A stretch of 37,074 nucleotides of DNA from Enterobacteria phage SfV. A program made the position numbers and the translations under genes. Positions 2,451 through 28,079 of the stretch are shown one piece after another (the first letter of the stretch is position 1; each line of letters opens with the position of its first letter). The DNA lies in sequence record NC_003444. One strand, given 5' to 3'. Under the pieces are notes generated by a model. The model was not told the origin of the DNA. It made no database searches and saw only the letters and a program-made list of their open reading frames with translations.

Positions 2451-3666
2451 TGCTCTGTTCAGAAGTAAATCACTGGAGAATCCTTCCACCCCGATAACCG
2501 GTGATGCCGTTGATACTGATGGGCTGTTCCGGGCAGACGTTTATGTCAGTCCTGAGACTGCGATGAAACTGGCTGCGGTGTATTCCTGTATCTATGTCCT
2601 GTCTTCCAGCCTTGCCCAGATGCCGTTGCATGTTATGCGCAGGCACAAGGGGAAGGTTGAACCCGCACGCGATCATCCGGCGTTTTATCTGGTTCATGAT
2701 GAGCCCAATACCTGGCAAACCAGCTACAAATGGCGCGAACTGAAACAACGTCACATCCTTGGCTGGGGGAATGGGTATACCTGGGTGAAACGTAATCGTC
2801 GCGGTGAAGTCATATCCCTGGATTGCTGTATGCCGTGGGAAACGACGCTGATGAATACTGGTGGCCGATATACCTACGGTTTGTACAACGAATATGGGGC
2901 GTTTGCGATCAGTCCGGACGATATGATCCACATCCGTGCGCTGGGTAATAATCAGAAGATGGGGCTGAGTCCGATTATGCAACATGCCGAAACAATAGGC
3001 ATGGGGATGAGCGGTCAGAAGTACACAGAAAGCTTCTTCAGCGGTAATGCCCGTCCGGCGGGGATAGTATCCGTTAAAAGCGGACTCAATAAGGAAAGCT
3101 GGGGCTGGCTTAAAGATCAGTGGCAGAAGGCATCGCAGGCGTTACGCCGCCAGGAAAACAAAACCATGCTGCTGCCAGCCGATCTGGATTACAAGGCACT
3201 GACTGTGTCGCCAGTTGACGCTCAGATCATTGACATGATGAAGCTGAACCGTTCAATGATCGCCGGTATTTTCAATATTCCTGCGCACATGATTAATGAC
3301 CTCGAAAAAGCCACCTTCTCCAATATTTCTGCGCAGGCGATTCAGTTTGTCCGCTACACGATGATGCCGTGGGTGACGAACTGGGAGCAGGAGCTTAACC
3401 GTCGCTTGTTTACCCGCGCTGAGTTAGCCGCCGGGTATTACGTCAGGTTCAATCTGACGGGGCTTTTACGCGGAACTCCGCAGGAGCGCGCGCAATTCTA
3501 TCACTTCGCTATTACCGATGGATGGATGAGCCGTAATGAGGCCCGCGCATTCGAGGATATGAATCCGGTTGAAGGGCTGGACGAGATGCTGGTAAGCGTG
3601 AATGCTGCTAACCCGGCAGGAGATTTTAAGCCCCCAAAAAACGATGAGGGAAAAACCAATGAATGA
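2440..3666 (+). CDS. portal protein (HK97 family)
   Basis: ORF 2392..3666; start probably GTG 2440 (GGGGGA just upstream) giving [10 protein letters not shown]; length and position typical of a portal. Confidence 0.85.
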   Translation: MLLDALFRSKSLENPSTPITGDAVDTDGLFRADVYVSPETAMKLAAVYSCIYVLSSSLAQMPLHVMRRHKGKVEPARDHPAFYLVHDEPNTWQTSYKWRELKQRHILGWGNGYTWVKRNRRGEVISLDCCMPWETTLMNTGGRYTYGLYNEYGAFAISPDDMIHIRALGNNQKMGLSPIMQHAETIGMGMSGQKYTESFFSGNARPAGIVSVKSGLNKESWGWLKDQWQKASQALRRQENKTMLLPADLDYKALTVSPVDAQIIDMMKLNRSMIAGIFNIPAHMINDLEKATFSNISAQAIQFVRYTMMPWVTNWEQELNRRLFTRAELAAGYYVRFNLTGLLRGTPQERAQFYHFAITDGWMSRNEARAFEDMNPVEGLDEMLVSVNAANPAGDFKPPKNDEGKTNE

Positions 3667-4261
3667 CCGTGAAATCCGTTGTTACAGCGGTGAGGTGCGT
3701 GCTGAGAGGCATGACGATAACCCGGCGCACATTATCGGTTATGGATCGGTGTTTGACTGTCGTTCTGAGCTGATATTCGGTTCATTCCGCGAAATCATCC
3801 GGCCCGGCGCTTTTGACGATGTGCTTGGTGATGATGTACGCGCACTGTTTAACCACGATCCTAATTTTATTCTTGGGCGTAGTGCAGCAGGCACGCTGAA
3901 TCTCTCAGTTGATGAGCGCGGATTACGCTATGACATCCAGGCTCCGGAGACACAGACCATTCGTGATCTGGTGCTGGCCCCGATGCAACGTGGAGATATT
4001 AACCAGTCATCTTTCGCTTTCCGTGTCGCCCGTGACGGTGAGGAGTGGTATCAGGATGAGGACGGGGTTGTTATTCGCGAGATAACCCGCTTTTCCCGTC
4101 TGCTGGATGTCAGTCCTGTGACATATCCTGCCTATCAGGAGGCTGACTCGGCTGTTCGCTCCATGAAAGCATGGCAGGAGGCGCGCAACAGCGGCGCGCT
4201 ACAGAAAGCCATTAATCAACGTATGGCGCGTGAACGCGTCCTGACCCTTCTTAACGCGTAA
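3659..4261 (+). CDS. prohead maturation protease (HK97 S78-like)
   Basis: ORF 3602..4261; ATG 3659 preceded by GAGGG; placed between portal and major capsid gene. Confidence 0.8.
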   Translation: MNDREIRCYSGEVRAERHDDNPAHIIGYGSVFDCRSELIFGSFREIIRPGAFDDVLGDDVRALFNHDPNFILGRSAAGTLNLSVDERGLRYDIQAPETQTIRDLVLAPMQRGDINQSSFAFRVARDGEEWYQDEDGVVIREITRFSRLLDVSPVTYPAYQEADSAVRSMKAWQEARNSGALQKAINQRMARERVLTLLNA

Positions 4262-4271
4262 AGGAAACATC

Positions 4272-5501
4272 ATGAAACTGCATGAACTGAAACAGAAACG
4301 TAATACTATCGCAACTGACATGCGCGCCCTGAATGAAAAAATTGGTGATAACGCATGGACGGAAGAGCAGCGCACGGAGTGGAACAAAGCAAAATCCGAA
4401 CTGGAAGCGCTTGATGAACGAATTGCACGCGAAGAAGAACTGCGTCGTCAGGATCAGGCGTACATTGAAAGCAATGAGGAAGAGCAGCGTCAGAATCTTG
4501 ATCCGGAAAACAATTCGCAACAGGATGAGAAACGAGCTCAGGTTTTTGATAAGTGGATGCGTCACGGTGCCAGTGAGCTGACATCAGAAGAGCGAAAGGC
4601 GTTGCGTGAACTTCGTGCCCAGGGTGTAGCTCAGGATGAAAAGGGCGGATATACCGTACCAGAAACATTCCTGGCGAAAGTTGTTGAGAAGATGAAATCC
4701 TACGGTGGCATCGCCAGTGTGGCGCAGATTCTGACCACTTCTGACGGTCGCACCATGGAGTGGGCAACAGCTGATGGTACTTCCGAAGTTGGTGTTCTGC
4801 TGGGCGAAAATGAAGAAGCCGGTGAAGAAGACACCGATTTCGGTATGGGAAGTCTTGGGGCGCTCAAAATGACATCGAAAATCATTCGTGTGTCTAATGA
4901 GTTGCTGCAGGACAGCGCGATCGATATGGAAGCTTATCTTGCCCGTCGCATTGCTGAACGTATTGGTCGTGGTGAAGCCCGTTATCTGATTCAGGGGACG
5001 GGTGCTGGTACGCCTAAACAACCCAAAGGGCTGGCAGCATCAGTGACCGGCACAACACAGACTGCCGCGGCAAATGCGGTGAAGTGGCAGGAAATTCTGG
5101 CTCTGAAACACAGCATTGATCCTGCATATCGTCGCGGACCGAAATTCCGCCTGGCGTTTAACGATAATACGCTGAAACTGATCAGTGAGATGGAAGACGG
5201 TCAGGGACGCCCTTTATGGTTGCCGGATATTGTTGGTGTGGCACCTGCTTCAGTGTTGAATGTACCGTATGTCATTGATCAGGAAATTGATGATATCGGG
5301 GCGGGTAAAAAATTCATGTTCTGTGGTGACTTTGATCGCTTCATTATCCGTCGTGTGCGATACATGATTCTTAAACGTCTGGTTGAGCGTTACGCGGAAT
5401 ATGATCAGACCGGTTTTCTGGCCTTCCATCGTTTTGACTGTATCCTGGAAGACACCTCTGCCATTAAAGCGCTGGTGGGGAAAGGTAGCGTTGGTGGTTG
5501 A
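4272..5501 (+). CDS. major capsid protein (HK97 fold) with N-terminal coiled-coil scaffolding (delta) domain
   Basis: 409 aa; charged coiled-coil N-terminus (ELKQKRNTIATDMRALNEKI...) followed by capsid domain; follows the protease. Confidence 0.9.
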   Translation: MKLHELKQKRNTIATDMRALNEKIGDNAWTEEQRTEWNKAKSELEALDERIAREEELRRQDQAYIESNEEEQRQNLDPENNSQQDEKRAQVFDKWMRHGASELTSEERKALRELRAQGVAQDEKGGYTVPETFLAKVVEKMKSYGGIASVAQILTTSDGRTMEWATADGTSEVGVLLGENEEAGEEDTDFGMGSLGALKMTSKIIRVSNELLQDSAIDMEAYLARRIAERIGRGEARYLIQGTGAGTPKQPKGLAASVTGTTQTAAANAVKWQEILALKHSIDPAYRRGPKFRLAFNDNTLKLISEMEDGQGRPLWLPDIVGVAPASVLNVPYVIDQEIDDIGAGKKFMFCGDFDRFIIRRVRYMILKRLVERYAEYDQTGFLAFHRFDCILEDTSAIKALVGKGSVGG

Positions 5502-16670: not shown

Positions 16671-17321
16671 ATGCATCGTATAGACACGAAAACCGCGCAG
16701 AAGGATAAGTTCGGCGCGGGTAAGAACGGTTTTACCCGTGGTAACCCCCAGACAGGCACGCCTGCCACCGATCTGGATGATGACTACTTTGACATGTTGC
16801 AGGAAGAACTCTGCAGCGTGGTGGAGGCATCCGGGGCCAGTCTGGAGAAGGCGCAGCACGACCAGCTGCTTACCGCGCTTCGTGCGCTGCTGTTAAGCCG
16901 CAAGAATCCGTTTGGCGATATCAAATCGGATGGCACGGTGAAAACGGCTCTCGAAAACCTTGGTTTGGGAGAAGCGGCAAAACGGGATATAGGGACAGGG
17001 GCAAATCAGATACCTGATATGAGTTTATTCGCGTCAATTAATACCGTAACGGCTGCTGCGCAAAAATTTCCGTCCGGATTAGTTTTACAGTGCGGTCAGT
17101 TGAATGGTGCCCCGAATGTATCTTCAACATACGGGATGAAGTTCCCGATGACGTTCTCAAGAGTCATTGCTGTCGTAGTTACATTAAACGTTACTGGCGC
17201 GGCAGGGCAGCCGACTGTATCGGCGACAAATGTCCAGAACACTGGATTTGATATTACTGTGTCGCCTGGTTCAGGATACGGCGCATCTGCTGATGCGTAT
17301 TACATTGCAATGGGATATTAA
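16671..17321 (+). CDS. tail fibre protein (short)
   Basis: 216 aa; N-terminus [22 protein letters not shown] resembles conserved tail-fibre N-terminal domains; followed by assembly chaperone. Confidence 0.75.
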
Positions 17322-17325
17322 CGAA

Positions 17326-17733
17326 ATGTCATATTTTTATTCTGCATCGACAAACGGATTTTATTCGACTGAATTTCACGGCACCAATATTCCTGATGAT
17401 GCAGTGGAAATCTCGGAATCAGAATGGGAAACATTGATTAATTCACAGGGTGTAACAAAAATGATTACCTGTGGTGAGAACGGTCATCCTGTCATTGTTG
17501 ACCGTCCTTCTCCAACACCAGAACGATTAGCCTTAATAAATGATGAAAAGAAATCTGCACTGATAGCAGAGGCAACGAATGTAATAGCTCCGCTTCAGGA
17601 TGCGGTTGATTTAGGTATGGCAACAGATGATGAAACGAAACTGTTACTGGCATGGGAAAAATATCGGGTGCTATTGATGCGTGTTGATATAAAAAATACA
17701 GAGTGGCCGAAAAAACCAGAGGGAAATAAATAA
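17326..17733 (+). CDS. tail fibre assembly protein (Tfa-like)
   Basis: ATG 17326 (MSYFYSASTNGFY...), 135 aa; typical Tfa N-terminus; position. Confidence 0.75.
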   Translation: MSYFYSASTNGFYSTEFHGTNIPDDAVEISESEWETLINSQGVTKMITCGENGHPVIVDRPSPTPERLALINDEKKSALIAEATNVIAPLQDAVDLGMATDDETKLLLAWEKYRVLLMRVDIKNTEWPKKPEGNK

Positions 17734-17784
17734 TGGGGATTTCGTTATCGGATGAAGAAAGAGACCGTTAATTATAACTGCAGA

Positions 17785-17807
17785 TCCCCCCCTAAGTTTC
17801 GGGGGGG
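17785..17807. terminator. G/C hairpin between convergent tail-fibre and gtr operons (possible bidirectional terminator)
   Basis: C7 (17785-17791), 8-nt loop, G8 (17800-17807), in the 124-nt gap between convergent genes. Confidence 0.35.
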
Positions 17808-17857
17808 GTATTGATGCAAAACTTAGCTCAATAGCATTAAGTAACTACCATTCAACA

Positions 17858-19111
17858 TTAAGGCTGTTTTTTTATTAATGTCATCGTCCATCCTGCAGGG
17901 TTGAACTTGAAAGAATACGATTCTCCTGGTGCTAAACTTTCAAATTTTTTAACTTGCTCTTTCCACCCGTAATCTGGGAGTGGGGTAAGATTGAAAAAAT
18001 ATAAACATGAGATTAACGATGTTGTATATAATATCCATGGTAGGAATTTAAAGTCCAACTGGGAAATATGGTTTAAGAAGTAAACCAATACAGAGTACCA
18101 TATAATTGTTGGTATGACAGAATATCTTCCCCCGCCATGAATTAATAATGGCCATTGCTCACTTGTAGAAGAAAGCATTGGTTTTGCTAGTGAAAACGTT
18201 AATGTTAGTATTGCGAAAACTATTGCCGAGCGCATGGGGTAATTGGAAACAATAAATGTAAAAATAGTGATGGAAAGACAAATCATTGTAATTGCAATGC
18301 AAATTGAATCATGATTCCATAAAGGTGGCAAAAAGTCACCATTAGCCCATAAACCCAGAAAAACCTTTGTTGTTAATATTTTGCAAAGTGTTGCGAAATT
18401 AGCTCCAAGAACCATATCAACTCTGGTCTCAGAGGATGTCATGATAATAGAAATAAATTGAATCAAACAAATAGCAATGAAAACGTATTCGTGAGTGGTG
18501 ATTTTTTTTGTAGATAAGCGTTTTTGTATAAGTATATTTATCCCTACCATTGGAGCCATGAACACTATAAATGGGCCACTTAGTCCACATATGATTATCG
18601 CTATATAATCGTGTGCTTTTTGATAATTATTTGTAGGCTTTGGAGCTAACATAACAAGAAGTAAATATAGTGATAAATACCAATGATCATTAGTAACATT
18701 GGCGTGCACTTCTGATACTTCCGGCATTGTTATAATAAACAAAGCAGTAAATATTCTTGGTGTTATGTTTACGTAACTAAATCTTCCAGAGAGTATGAAA
18801 GATACAAGCAATGCCCTAACAATAATTGCGGAGATGTTAAAAATTAAAGGGGCATACATTAAATTAAAATTTAATGATATGGAGGCAATAAGTTTTGATA
18901 TGGTTTGATAATATCCATTTTGAGGGAATATCATTGATGTGAATATCCCATTATTGTATGCCATAGCATACCATACATGAGCATCTTCTGCCCAAAACTG
19001 CGGTGCTCTGATTATATCAGGACGGCGCAAATACATCAAAATAACTGCAATGAAAAATACACCAATTAAGAAAAATAGTTTTTTTACATATGATGTTTTA
19101 AGGCTTTTCAT
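17858..19111 (-). CDS. gtrC: serotype-specific O-antigen glucosyltransferase GtrC (type-specific Gtr; matches my memory of 417-aa GtrV)
   Basis: 417-aa polytopic membrane protein directly downstream of gtrB; third gene of a gtrA-gtrB-gtr(type) cassette. Confidence 0.75.
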
Positions 19112-20031
19112 TTTTGTTTCTCATTTTTGATGATGTATTTTGGGCGATGTTTGCTTTCAATATAGATTCTGCCTATATATTCACCGAGAACACCAATCCC
19201 GATCAGTTGCACTCCACCCAAGAAAAGTATTGATACAAGCAGGGAGGGATACCCGCGTACTGGGTTACCAAAGACAAGGGTGTCTATAATCATCCATGCA
19301 CCATATAAAAATGAAATGCTTGCAACAAACAAACCTATATAAGTCCATACGCGAAGAGGAAAGGTTGAAAAACTTGTGATACCTTCCAGTGCCAGATTCC
19401 ATAATTTCCAGCCATTAAATTTTGAGATGCCAGCAACGCGCTCTGCGCGTACATATTCAACGACATCTGTCTGACCACCCACCCAGCTCAGTATGCCTTT
19501 CATGAAAAGATTGCGCTCAGGCAACAGTTTAATGTTCTCCACAACCTCACGAGACATGAGTCGAAAATCTCCGACATTTTCCTCGATCTTTGGGGTGCTT
19601 ATTTTGTTGTGTAACTTATAGAACCACTCAGCTGTCTTACGTTTCAGTCGTCCATCAGTTGAGCGGTCTGAACGTTTAGCAAGCACCATGTCAGCACCTG
19701 CCTGCCACTTTTCAATAAGATGAGGGATGACCTCAATAGGATCTTGCAGGTCGACATCAATAGGAATTACAGCATCGCCGCTTGCATGGTCTAACCCTGC
19801 AAATAAGGCTGGTTCTTTACCAAAGTTGCGTGTAAATGACAGCGGAACAACTAGTGGGTCTGAAACAGCCAGCGCGTTAATAATTGACTCTGTGGCATCT
19901 TTACTTCCGTCATTTATGAATACAATTTCTACTTCATATGGCTTCAACTCTTGGAATTCACGTACCGTTTTATAGAAAACAGGTATCGCTTCTTCTTCAT
20001 TGAAGACAGGAACGACAAGAGATATTTTCAT
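19108..20031 (-). CDS. gtrB: bactoprenol glucosyltransferase GtrB (GT2 family)
   Basis: 307 aa; N-terminal GT2 signature ([15 protein letters not shown]...INDGSKD) plus C-terminal transmembrane helices. Confidence 0.9.
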
Positions 20032-20390
20032 TTCGCATCCCTAAAGACAATGAACTTTGAATAGACGAAACCGCACACCAGACTGATGGCGGAGAAGGTG
20101 ATAAGAGTGACTATTGGAGGAAGTGAGCATTTATCAGCTGCCCAACCAACAATCACACTCAATATTCCCATAAATCCCACGTATAACATGTAGCGCATCG
20201 CTGTAGTCGATGCTTTGAATGTGAATCTTGCATTCGCGAAGAAGCTAAAGCTCACAGCCACTACGAAACCTGTGAAGTTTGCCAGAGCCTGACTGGTATG
20301 TGCGGCATAGATACATACACCAAAAACCACCCAGTGTATAAGTGTGTTCAGCACACCTATAGATGTGTACTTTACAAATAACTTTAACAT
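20028..20390 (-). CDS. gtrA: GtrA flippase-like membrane protein
   Basis: 120 aa, four predicted TM segments, ATGA-coupled upstream of gtrB. Confidence 0.85.
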
Positions 20391-20591
20391 TTATTTAATC
20401 AATGAGCTCTGAAAGGCATGAAGTCTATCATCCAAGTCTCAATTGGTCGATACTTGCTATGTCTGATGAGACAAAACTGAGACACATAAGGCCTCACAAT
20501 GGCTTGCAAGGCTTTACATGTTTTGATGTGGTGGGACGTGTGAGCCCAGTGTTGATGGGATAATCCTTTGAATTACAAGCGGATTCTTATA

Positions 20592-20637
20592 ATTCGTAAT
20601 GCGAAGGTCGTAGGTTCGACTCCTATTATCGGCACCA
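20592..20637 (+). other. attP core: 3' 46 nt of a tRNA-Thr(CGU) gene (thrW-like), not an intact tRNA
   Basis: Sequence attcgtaatgcgaaggtcgtaggttcgactcctattatcggcacca = anticodon loop (CGT), variable/T arm (GGTTCGACTCC) and acceptor 3' end with CCA; upstream sequence diverges from tRNA; lies immediately next to the integrase gene. Confidence 0.8.
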
Positions 20638-20651
20638 TTTAAATCAATAAG

Positions 20652-21815
20652 TTACACATCATTAGTACCTTCCTTATTTTTTGACTGGGACGAATTTGGG
20701 ACCGATGGGTTCAGGATCGAGTCTATTTGCCGTGCGTGTTCGGTAAGGTGATTAGGTGCAAGGTGAGCATATCGACGAACCATTTCGATAGACTCCCAGC
20801 CTCCCATTTCCTGTAACACTGACAACGGGACTCCGGCTTGACCCAGCCAACTTGCCCAGGTGTGTCTCAAGTCGTGAAATCTGAAATCATCAATACCAGC
20901 CCGTCTCAGCGCCGCTTTCCAGGCTGTGTTTGCGTCATACCGCATCTCCCTTACTGTTGGCGCTTTCGTTCCGTCTGGTTTGGTACAGCTTTCCTTGTAC
21001 ACAAATACCCAACGGTGATGATTCCCGATTTGTTTTTTCAAAACGCGACATGCAGTATCATTCAGCGCAACGCCAATTGCGCGGTTTGATTTACTCTCTT
21101 CCGGGTTTATCCATGCCACCCGGCGCTGCATGTCTATTTGTTGCCATTCAAGGTTGATGATGTTCGAGCGTCTTAAGCCTGTTGCCAGTGCAAATTCAAC
21201 AACAGACTTTAATGGCTCCGGACATTCATCAATCAGCCTTTGTGCTTCATGGGGCTCCAGCCAGCGGATCCGTTTATTCTTTGGTTGAGGCACTTTAATA
21301 ATTGGTGCCTTATCCAGCATTTTCCATTCACGCTCTGCGGCTCTTAGTAGGGCCTTTATAAATGAAAGATGCGTAGCCTTCGTTGCAACGGACGCTGGTT
21401 TTGGCGTGTATTCTGGAACAGGTTTCCCTTTTTTCCTGCATGCTTCTGCCCTGAGTCTCCAGTTTTCCTCATGACGCCGGTTCGTCATTTTCTGGATTGC
21501 TGAATAAATTTTTGATTCAGTAATGTCTCTTAGTTGCATTCCTGCGAAATGTTGAAGCCAGAATCCGATCCGGCTTTTGTCATCGTCCAGTGATTTTTGA
21601 TGTGCTTTCTCTTCAAGCCACCTGACACACGCTTCCTCGAACGTTATATCAGGTATTTCACCAAGTTTGCTGACCCGCCATGCTTCAGCCTTTAGCTTGT
21701 CATGGAGTTCTGTCGCCTGCCTTTTGTCCTTTGTTCCAAGAGACTGTTTAAATCTTTTACCGTTCGGCAATGTGAAACTGGCGTACCATATTTCACCTCT
21801 GCGGAAGAGTGACAT
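20652..21815 (-). CDS. int: tyrosine integrase (site-specific recombinase)
   Basis: 387 aa; C-terminal catalytic region [10 protein letters not shown]...RRYAHL with the tyrosine; SD AGAGGAAA upstream; adjacent to attP. Confidence 0.9.
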
Positions 21816-22042
21816 TTTCTTTCCTCTGTTATGCCATCACCCGCGCTCACCTGGACAGTATGCAGCGGAGACTGAAGAGCCGCAATGCAGGCTTGTCGTG
21901 TTGTGAGGTAAGGAGATTTACTCTTAGTGGGATCTTTGCGTGTTGCCTGAAGACGCCCTGTGCGTATCCAGTTAATGGCAGTCGGTCTGGATATCTTGAG
22001 AAAATCACAGGCCTCATCGAGTGTGAGGCTGTATGGCTCCAT
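21692..22042 (-). CDS. xis: excisionase (AlpA/Xis-type HTH)
   Basis: ORF 21692..22126; ATG at 22042 ([31 protein letters not shown]); overlaps int start by ~120 nt. Confidence 0.65.
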
Positions 22043-22347
22043 TATTTCACCTCTTGCTGTGACATTGTTGAAAAATGGATACCAGCTCGTTGCTGCCAGA
22101 CGATCCAACCGAGAGTCATATCCCATGCCATGTATTCGTTATCGCCGTTTTTTGCTCTCCGACGATCTACTAAGTCACCGAAACGCTTTTCCATGAATAA
22201 TTCATAAGCTTCGCGTTCATCTGGTTCTACTTCCAGAGATAGGAGTGCGATTTCATAAGCACGGCGCTCAATATCGTCTCGCACGTCAAGGCTGCTGATA
22301 CGCTCTTTAATTTCTTTAATCAGTTCTTTGTCGGTAAAAGTGGTCAT
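22042..22347 (-). CDS. hypothetical acidic protein (YfdT-like by memory)
   Basis: 101-aa ORF, stop overlaps xis start (TAATG). Confidence 0.5.
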   Translation of the reverse strand: MTTFTDKELIKEIKERISSLDVRDDIERRAYEIALLSLEVEPDEREAYELFMEKRFGDLVDRRRAKNGDNEYMAWDMTLGWIVWQQRAGIHFSTMSQQEVK

Positions 22348-27246: not shown

Positions 27247-28079
27247 ACAGTTTAACGGCAAATAACCGTTTGTCGCAACAGCTGGTGGTCAGCGTCGCTG
27301 AACACCTGTTGTTACGGCATGAATGCAGATTACCAAATCACCTGGCTGTAAGTAACCACAGAGAACTTTACCTGACTGTGGGGGGCGAGTTGTGCAGGAA
27401 CTTAACCGCTGGTTTCGTGACGGAAGAGGACTTTATGTTCATGTTATTCGTTGGGAGCCAGAAACACAGCGCGTTATCTATCTTCGCAAAGACTACCCGC
27501 ATGAGTGCTTTAGTCCTTTGTGGAAATTCAGGCGTGATTTTGTTGAGTGTGAAGGACCACCAGCACATTGATTCTGCCATTCCGGGACGTTACACTGTTC
27601 AGGCACCTTATAAAGCGGGTGCCGGGATTGGCGTCCTGGAATTGATCAAGGCGATATATGACGCGCCAGCGTCTTTTTTATCGTCCGCATTTGCTCACAT
27701 CAAAGTTATGGTGGGCTGGGCGGGGGCATCGAAAGATGCGCCGGTTTCCTTGATCACCGGTTACGCCAACCCCGTTCAGTTCACCACCAGCGAAATTGCC
27801 GTTTCCGGTGGTGGAAGTATTTCACCGATCAAGGAGGCTGCCATCATGGCTACTGTCCCAGCCCTCACTCGTCTGAATGATGAAGACTTACATAAACTCA
27901 GTTATGTAACAACTGCACTACGTGCTCTGCGCAAGGTAACTCTTTCGGATCCCCAGGCGCATCAGGTTTTGGTAGAAACCCTTCTTAACTTGCAGGCTGA
28001 ACGTATTCGTCTGGCGGATAAGGCTAATTTTCATATTCACCGTCTCCTGAATATCAGCGGAGGGCATCGTCATGCTTAA
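27243..28079 (+). CDS. hypothetical protein (gene model uncertain)
   Basis: 278-codon ORF with ATGA coupling to the upstream gene; strong internal AAGGAGG-ATG at 27846; alternative-frame GTG ORF 27392..27571. Confidence 0.4.
   Translation: MNSLTANNRLSQQLVVSVAEHLLLRHECRLPNHLAVSNHRELYLTVGGELCRNLTAGFVTEEDFMFMLFVGSQKHSALSIFAKTTRMSALVLCGNSGVILLSVKDHQHIDSAIPGRYTVQAPYKAGAGIGVLELIKAIYDAPASFLSSAFAHIKVMVGWAGASKDAPVSLITGYANPVQFTTSEIAVSGGGSISPIKEAAIMATVPALTRLNDEDLHKLSYVTTALRALRKVTLSDPQAHQVLVETLLNLQAERIRLADKANFHIHRLLNISGGHRHA

Follow-up and report, generated by a model that had tools for sequence, protein, structure and literature searches.

The gtrA-gtrB-gtrV serotype-conversion operon of temperate Shigella flexneri phage SfV: gene identities, limits of the type-specific module, and a gtr leader lacking GATC sites

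What do the three minus-strand genes at positions 17858-20390 of the phage DNA analyzed here (37,074 nucleotides in all, hereafter the window) encode, and which part of the locus sets its specificity? The original prediction, which was made from the letters alone, described a lysogenic-conversion cassette that modifies the O antigen, and it placed within it a small flippase-like protein, a bactoprenol glucosyltransferase, and a type-specific glucosyltransferase that it called GtrC. In the current study, we consider it practically certain that the window is the genome of the temperate Shigella flexneri phage SfV and that this interval is its serotype-conversion operon gtrA-gtrB-gtrV. The three genes that had been placed there on the minus strand are indeed present as intact open reading frames (ORFs) at exactly the predicted positions, and their limits, as given by the ORF listing, are as follows.

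20028..20390, minus strand: gtrA, 120 aa
19108..20031, minus strand: gtrB, 307 aa
17858..19111, minus strand: gtrV (the gtrC of the original prediction), 417 aa

All three proteins are identical to those of the known gtrA-gtrB-gtrV cassette of phage SfV, which likewise lies between the tail-fibre assembly gene and attP-int, and we found no difference between the two. The cassette is thus an already known element, and the main claim contains nothing new. The SfV gtr genes have been cloned, sequenced, mutagenized, and topologically mapped since 1997, and for this reason finding them again brings no new biology. The cassette (NC_003444 / U82619) reportedly goes back to work by Huan et al. in 1997 and Allison et al. 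in 2002. It matters here only as a correct annotation of what is a textbook case of phage-driven serotype conversion in S. flexneri; because it sets the type V antigen, it is of relevance to serotyping and to O-antigen vaccines. That such conversion blocks readsorption of related phages, as the original prediction added, is the general textbook rationale for carrying genes of this kind.

The genes are co-oriented and tightly linked, and they run in the order gtrA-gtrB-gtr(type) beside attP and int, a layout that SfV has in common with SfI, SfII, and SfIV. Each of the three ORFs starts with ATG, and at both junctions (gtrA/gtrB and gtrB/gtrV) neighboring genes overlap by 4 nt with the sequence ATGA, as is typical of operons with translational coupling. 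The strand opposite the cassette contains short ORFs only (82 aa or less). The GC content drops from ca. 55 to 59% in the tail genes to 32 to 43% in the cassette, where gtrV has 33.3%, gtrB 42.3%, and gtrA 43.0%, compared with 50.8% for the window as a whole. Cassettes of this type are often decayed in Shigella SHI-O islands, and the same might be suspected of this one, namely, that it is a nonfunctional remnant. Many truncated fragments of GtrV, GtrB, and GtrA are indeed found in Shigella assemblies, and strains 8401 and 301 carry phage remnants only (PMC1550401). However, the three ORFs in the window are full length, with their start codons and overlaps intact and with no frameshift or premature stop, and they reside in a complete 37-kb phage genome that encodes terminase, tail, integrase, and excisionase proteins. 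Because the phage genome is complete and none of the three ORFs is damaged, the notion of a decayed remnant is ruled out, and we assign it a negligible probability.

The first gene product had been described as a small flippase-like protein with four transmembrane segments, and this description holds. Pfam family PF04138 (GtrA_DPMS_TM) matches GtrA over its full length (E 1.9e-14), its hydropathy profile displays four hydrophobic peaks, and its exact sequence is that of UniProt entry GTRA_BPSF5, "putative flippase GtrA." The flippase activity of GtrA has itself only been proposed so far (PMC11127046). A profile search of the PDB with GtrA returned a single weak match, to ABCG1 (E 0.013), and this match probably arose from shared hydrophobic composition.

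The second protein, the exact sequence of which is UniProt entry GTRB_BPSF5, matches Pfam family PF00535 (Glycos_transf_2; E 7.4e-31), and its residues 2-302 align with the solved structure of Synechocystis GtrB (PDB 5EKP; E 1.8e-88). It also aligns with ArnC (E ~1e-42), and it has two C-terminal hydrophobic peaks, at residues 232-248 and 265-281. These matches support the assignment of GtrB, in agreement with the original prediction, as a GT2 undecaprenyl-phosphate (bactoprenol) glucosyltransferase with two C-terminal membrane helices. Synechocystis GtrB and ArnC share with it the character of polyprenyl-phosphate glycosyltransferases that combine a GT2 domain with two membrane helices; the biological contexts of both differ from that of the SfV protein, and ArnC in addition uses another donor sugar.

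With regard to the third gene, an exact-sequence look-up showed the 417-aa protein to be identical, residue for residue, to AAB72132.1/NP_599055.1, the "serotype-specific glucosyl transferase" of Enterobacteria phage SfV, and the gtrC of the original prediction is therefore gtrV. Earlier work on this protein comprises studies of its topology and mutagenesis, along with the gtrA/gtrB/gtr(type) model (PMC3259042). Could the third gene instead encode an O-antigen acyltransferase or some other membrane protein that is not a glycosyltransferase? GtrV gave no match in Pfam, NCBIfam, or the sequences of the PDB when family and PDB profile searches were run, and gel assays detected no O-antigen glucosylation by Salmonella GtrC proteins of families II and IV (PMC3688519), both of which would sit comfortably with such an idea. 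Yet the lack of any Pfam match for the 417-aa protein extends to Acyl_transf_3, the sequence is identical to that of the experimentally studied GtrV of SfV (PMC3259042), it shares 35% identity with the glucosyltransferase GtrX, and a confident structural model of it matches only GT-C glycosyltransferases. An O-antigen-modifying acyltransferase (of the type of Oac, OafA, and Salmonella family II GtrC) is ruled out, since the sequence is exactly that of GtrV, its predicted fold is GT-C, and no acyltransferase domain is present, and we regard it as next to impossible that the third gene is anything of this kind.

As a check on the assignment of the third protein as a type-specific glucosyltransferase, the original prediction had named a comparison with the characterized Gtr transferases. 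Among phage records, tblastn found only GtrX of SfX (35.4% identity, 96% coverage, E 1e-60), while GtrI, GtrII, and GtrIV had no similarity to GtrV at E <= 1e-3. GtrX (L05001) is thus the only other phage protein detectably similar to GtrV, and it resembles GtrV in size and role, but 65% of its sequence is different. According to the literature, GtrX adds its glucose to rhamnose I (group antigen 7,8; serotype X) and not to rhamnose II. At the DNA level, a megablast search with positions 17700-20700 against phage DNA records, among which SfV's own record was absent, yielded no match covering gtrV, and gtrV likewise had no megablast match in 5,426 complete RefSeq Escherichia coli genomes. The 90% protein cluster to which GtrV belongs nonetheless includes full-length members that are labelled E. 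coli and come from contigs of 4.7 Mb, possibly Shigella assemblies that were deposited under the name E. coli.

The protein database contained 48 homologues of GtrV, ranging down to 29% identity. In Enterobacter hormaechei, a 40%-identical homologue follows gtrA-gtrB at a prophage end, with a tailspike gene adjoining, and in Vreelandella a 36%-identical homologue follows gtrA-gtrB within a polysaccharide locus. We also noted a contig of Trinickia symbiotica (positions 2486-5338) on which the genes ahead of a 29%-identical homologue encode a GT2 enzyme and, in the place of a GtrA-family protein, a VTT/DedA-domain protein, an arrangement which suggests a three-component system that employs a different candidate lipid flippase.

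Given that no Pfam, NCBIfam, or PDB sequence matched GtrV, the assignment of its fold rests on prediction. The AlphaFold2 model of the protein (mean pLDDT 93.7, pTM 0.92) has structural matches only among GT-C transferases with lipid-phosphate sugar donors, namely, ALG12, Pmt, ArnT, and PglB; a Foldseek search of BFVD with the same model returned nothing at E <= 0.001. This confident model points to a GT-C fold for GtrV, which is what would be expected of a periplasmic enzyme that uses undecaprenyl-phosphate-glucose. In an alignment of 30 of the 48 homologues (for which the query, like the model built on this alignment, lacked Met1, although residue numbers refer to the full-length protein), E42, D43, W47, Y67, R110, P130, E134, and N138 were invariant, as were S178-G179-P180, Q218, R230, R329, Y330, G396, and P405. 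D380, which according to PMC3259042 was singled out by Korres and Verma, is present as well. The third protein is accordingly predicted, much as had been claimed for a polytopic, type-specific transferase of 417 aa, to be a polytopic enzyme of GT-C fold with acidic residues in its first periplasmic loop. Both the GT-C fold and an acidic pair in that loop are required by the three-component model, in which the Gtr* enzymes are GT-C transferases and GtrB is the undP-Glc synthase (PMC11127046). Compared with the GT-C enzymes ArnT (5F15), ALG12, Pmt1/2/4, PglB, and AftA/B, with which its sequence identity is just 8 to 12%, GtrV is smaller (417 aa) and has a short C-terminal periplasmic domain. It also differs from all of these in its acceptor, which is the polymerized O antigen. 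The hydropathy profile of GtrV contains about ten peaks, and some 12 long hydrophobic helices are seen in the GT-C model. Using reporter fusions, Korres and Verma are said to have arrived in 2004 at nine transmembrane helices and a re-entrant loop, a topology that may not agree with the model.

A mechanism can be proposed in which the three proteins act in sequence. At the cytoplasmic face of the inner membrane, GtrB would transfer glucose from UDP-glucose to undecaprenyl phosphate, and the small, four-helix GtrA would then bring undecaprenyl-phosphate-glucose to the periplasmic face. There, the polytopic GtrV, with its predicted GT-C fold and the invariant Glu42-Asp43 pair in the first periplasmic loop, would attach the glucose to the growing O antigen, at O-3 of rhamnose II (rhamnose B). 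Glucose on rhamnose II would give rise to the type V antigen, and serotype Y would become 5a. In the lysogen, the phage would be integrated at thrW with the operon at the prophage end away from int, and the operon would be transcribed leftward from its own promoter, which would lie a short way inside attP. For the chemistry of glucosylation and for serotype conversion we rely on the literature, in which the three steps attributed to GtrB, GtrA, and GtrV (PMC3259042; PMC11127046), the conversion of serotype Y to 5a by SfV lysogeny (PMC3851460), and the identity of serotype 5a as glucose on O-3 of rhamnose B (i.e., rhamnose II) (PMC7712985) have been set out. The gene identities, the fold prediction, the attP core, and the module limits come from the present analysis; we infer the flippase role of GtrA, the position of the promoter, and constitutive expression.

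The original prediction further held that the type-specific gene is the variable part of the cassette, and comparison with other Shigella phages bears this out. Over gtrA-gtrB-attP-int, megablast identity was 98.5 to 98.8% to SfII and SfI and 91% to SfIV (for gtrA taken singly, DNA identity to its SfII and SfI counterparts was 98.5%), and the similarity with these two phages ends ca. 15 to 40 nt from the gtrB stop codon. To the right of gtrV, it resumes at 19124 for SfII and at 19150 for SfI, and on the left the similarity to SfI stops at 17785. From these limits and from the GC content, the following elements were defined.

17786..19123, minus strand: type-specific module, composed of gtrV, the hairpin that follows it, and the final ~16 nt of gtrB; from the limits of similarity to SfI/SfII and from GC
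17786..17808, no strand assigned: C7/G8 hairpin, from sequence; -21 kcal/mol on either strand, z -2.3 and -2.7, no U tract

The GC content of the module is 32 to 34%, and the gtrV gene of strain 8401 has a GC content of 32.99% (PMC1550401). The cassettes of SfI, SfII, and SfIV thus resemble that of SfV in gtrA, gtrB, attP core, and int (91 to 99% DNA identity), in gene order, and in the 4-nt overlaps, but their third gene has no tblastn similarity to GtrV. The gtrABC cassettes of P22 and of P22-like phages such as SPN9CC have the same three-component logic, attP (thrW) region, and promoter register, whereas their gtrA and gtrB show ca. 77% DNA identity to those of SfV and the sequence of their GtrC is unrelated to that of GtrV. 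The hairpin is perfect and lies in the gap between the tail-fibre-assembly gene and gtrV, which converge with stops at 17733 and 17858, respectively. It sits exactly at the left edge of the module, the point at which similarity to SfI is lost, and it may serve as a bidirectional terminator or mark the recombination joint. Further to the left, positions 17001-17733, which encode the C terminus of the tail fibre and the tail-fibre assembly protein (Caudo_TAP; E 1.2e-26), already have a GC content of only ca. 40 to 43% and are 93% identical to SfI. Host-range and conversion genes are therefore found together in one low-GC block.

On its other side the cassette had been predicted to adjoin attP, and this too is what we found.

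20592..20637, plus strand: attP core, 46 bp; same sequence as the SfI feature annotated "attP core"; 3' part of thrW
20652..21815, minus strand: int, tyrosine integrase; Pfam Phage_integrase, E 1.5e-46; annotated int in the 98 to 99% identical regions of SfI/SfII

The core, 201 nt upstream of gtrA and with int next door, is identical to the stretch of thrW (tRNA-Thr CGU) of E. coli K-12 that spans the anticodon arm through the CCA end, a match that occurred in 0 of 100 shuffles of the window; ARAGORN detected no complete tRNA in the window. The SfV site is in this respect an att site of the thrW-integrating lambdoid/P22 type, with a core that is the 3' end of tRNA-Thr(CGU). A 144-aa ORF at 21692-22126, which overlaps int, is the counterpart of the xis gene annotated in SfII. 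The plus strand of the core is the sense strand of the tRNA, and from this orientation it follows that after integration int would lie beside the reconstituted thrW, while the gtr operon would lie at the other prophage end and read inward.

How is the operon likely to be expressed? When the sequence upstream of gtrA was aligned with that of SPN9CC, counting from the gtrA ATG, a promoter-like element (TCGACC-N17-TAGACT in SfV and TCGATC-N17-TACACT in the P22-like phage) fell into register without a gap, and a terminator-like structure was found between this element and the attP core.

20422..20450, minus strand: predicted gtr promoter, TCGACC-N17-TAGACT with TG before the -10; from ungapped alignment with SPN9CC
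20478..20523, minus strand: putative rho-independent terminator; from terminator-like matches at 20512-20491 and 20496-20478

A scan for consensus promoters found no site upstream of gtrA, the predicted promoter falling below the threshold. Mapping in P22 put the gtr transcript start 25 bp ahead of the gtrA ATG and GATC4 at -33 (PMC2909390), and applying this geometry to SfV places the predicted start at ~20415, 25 nt upstream of the gtrA ATG; the position of the SfV promoter is therefore one suggested by analogy. The homologous terminator site in the SfII record (KC736978) is annotated "putative rho-independent terminator." An ATG-initiated ORF of 53 aa lies on the plus strand at 20402-20563, opposite the gtr leader, promoter, and terminator, and is presumed to be spurious.

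The likeness to P22 raises the prospect that the cassette is phase variable through Dam methylation and OxyR, as in P22 and Salmonella, so that lysogens would be only partly converted. The SfV promoter core is in register with the P22-type gtr promoter, and the P22 operon phase-varies by means of four GATC sites and OxyR half sites (PMC2909390). SfV, in contrast, contains not a single GATC in 20391-20651. In SPN9CC, the four GATC sites lie at -135, -122, -71, and -58 relative to the ATG. SfI, SfII, and SfIV retain just the one at -58, in the register of GATC4, and at the counterpart of this site SfV has GACC. The gtr promoters of the Shigella phages lack the stretch that bears GATC1-3 and both OxyR half sites, OxyR(A) and OxyR(B). 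With no GATC upstream of gtrA, phase variation of the Salmonella type through Dam and OxyR is not to be expected; the GATC sites that would define it are missing, we rejected it on that basis, and we rate it as very improbable. Instead, the SfV gtr operon probably is expressed constitutively in lysogens. The gtr promoters of the Shigella phages as a group look as though they were derived by truncation from the phase-variable Salmonella type and are probably locked ON. It is tempting to combine two points here, namely, that the Shigella-phage gtr operons are degenerate and locked ON, that of SfV most of all, and that the experimental topology of GtrV may need revision. As a joint claim this is tentative, and we would put its chances at only about one in three.

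Two further matches were recorded in the early/regulatory region of the window, where positions 27603-27679 (plus strand) match the isrK Hfq-binding RNA (64 bits) and the adjacent positions 27704-27791 (plus strand) match the C4 antisense RNA (82 bits), both at Rfam gathering score. C4 is the P1/P7-type antisense RNA that controls expression of an antirepressor, and SfV may carry an ant-type immunity module besides cI/cro.
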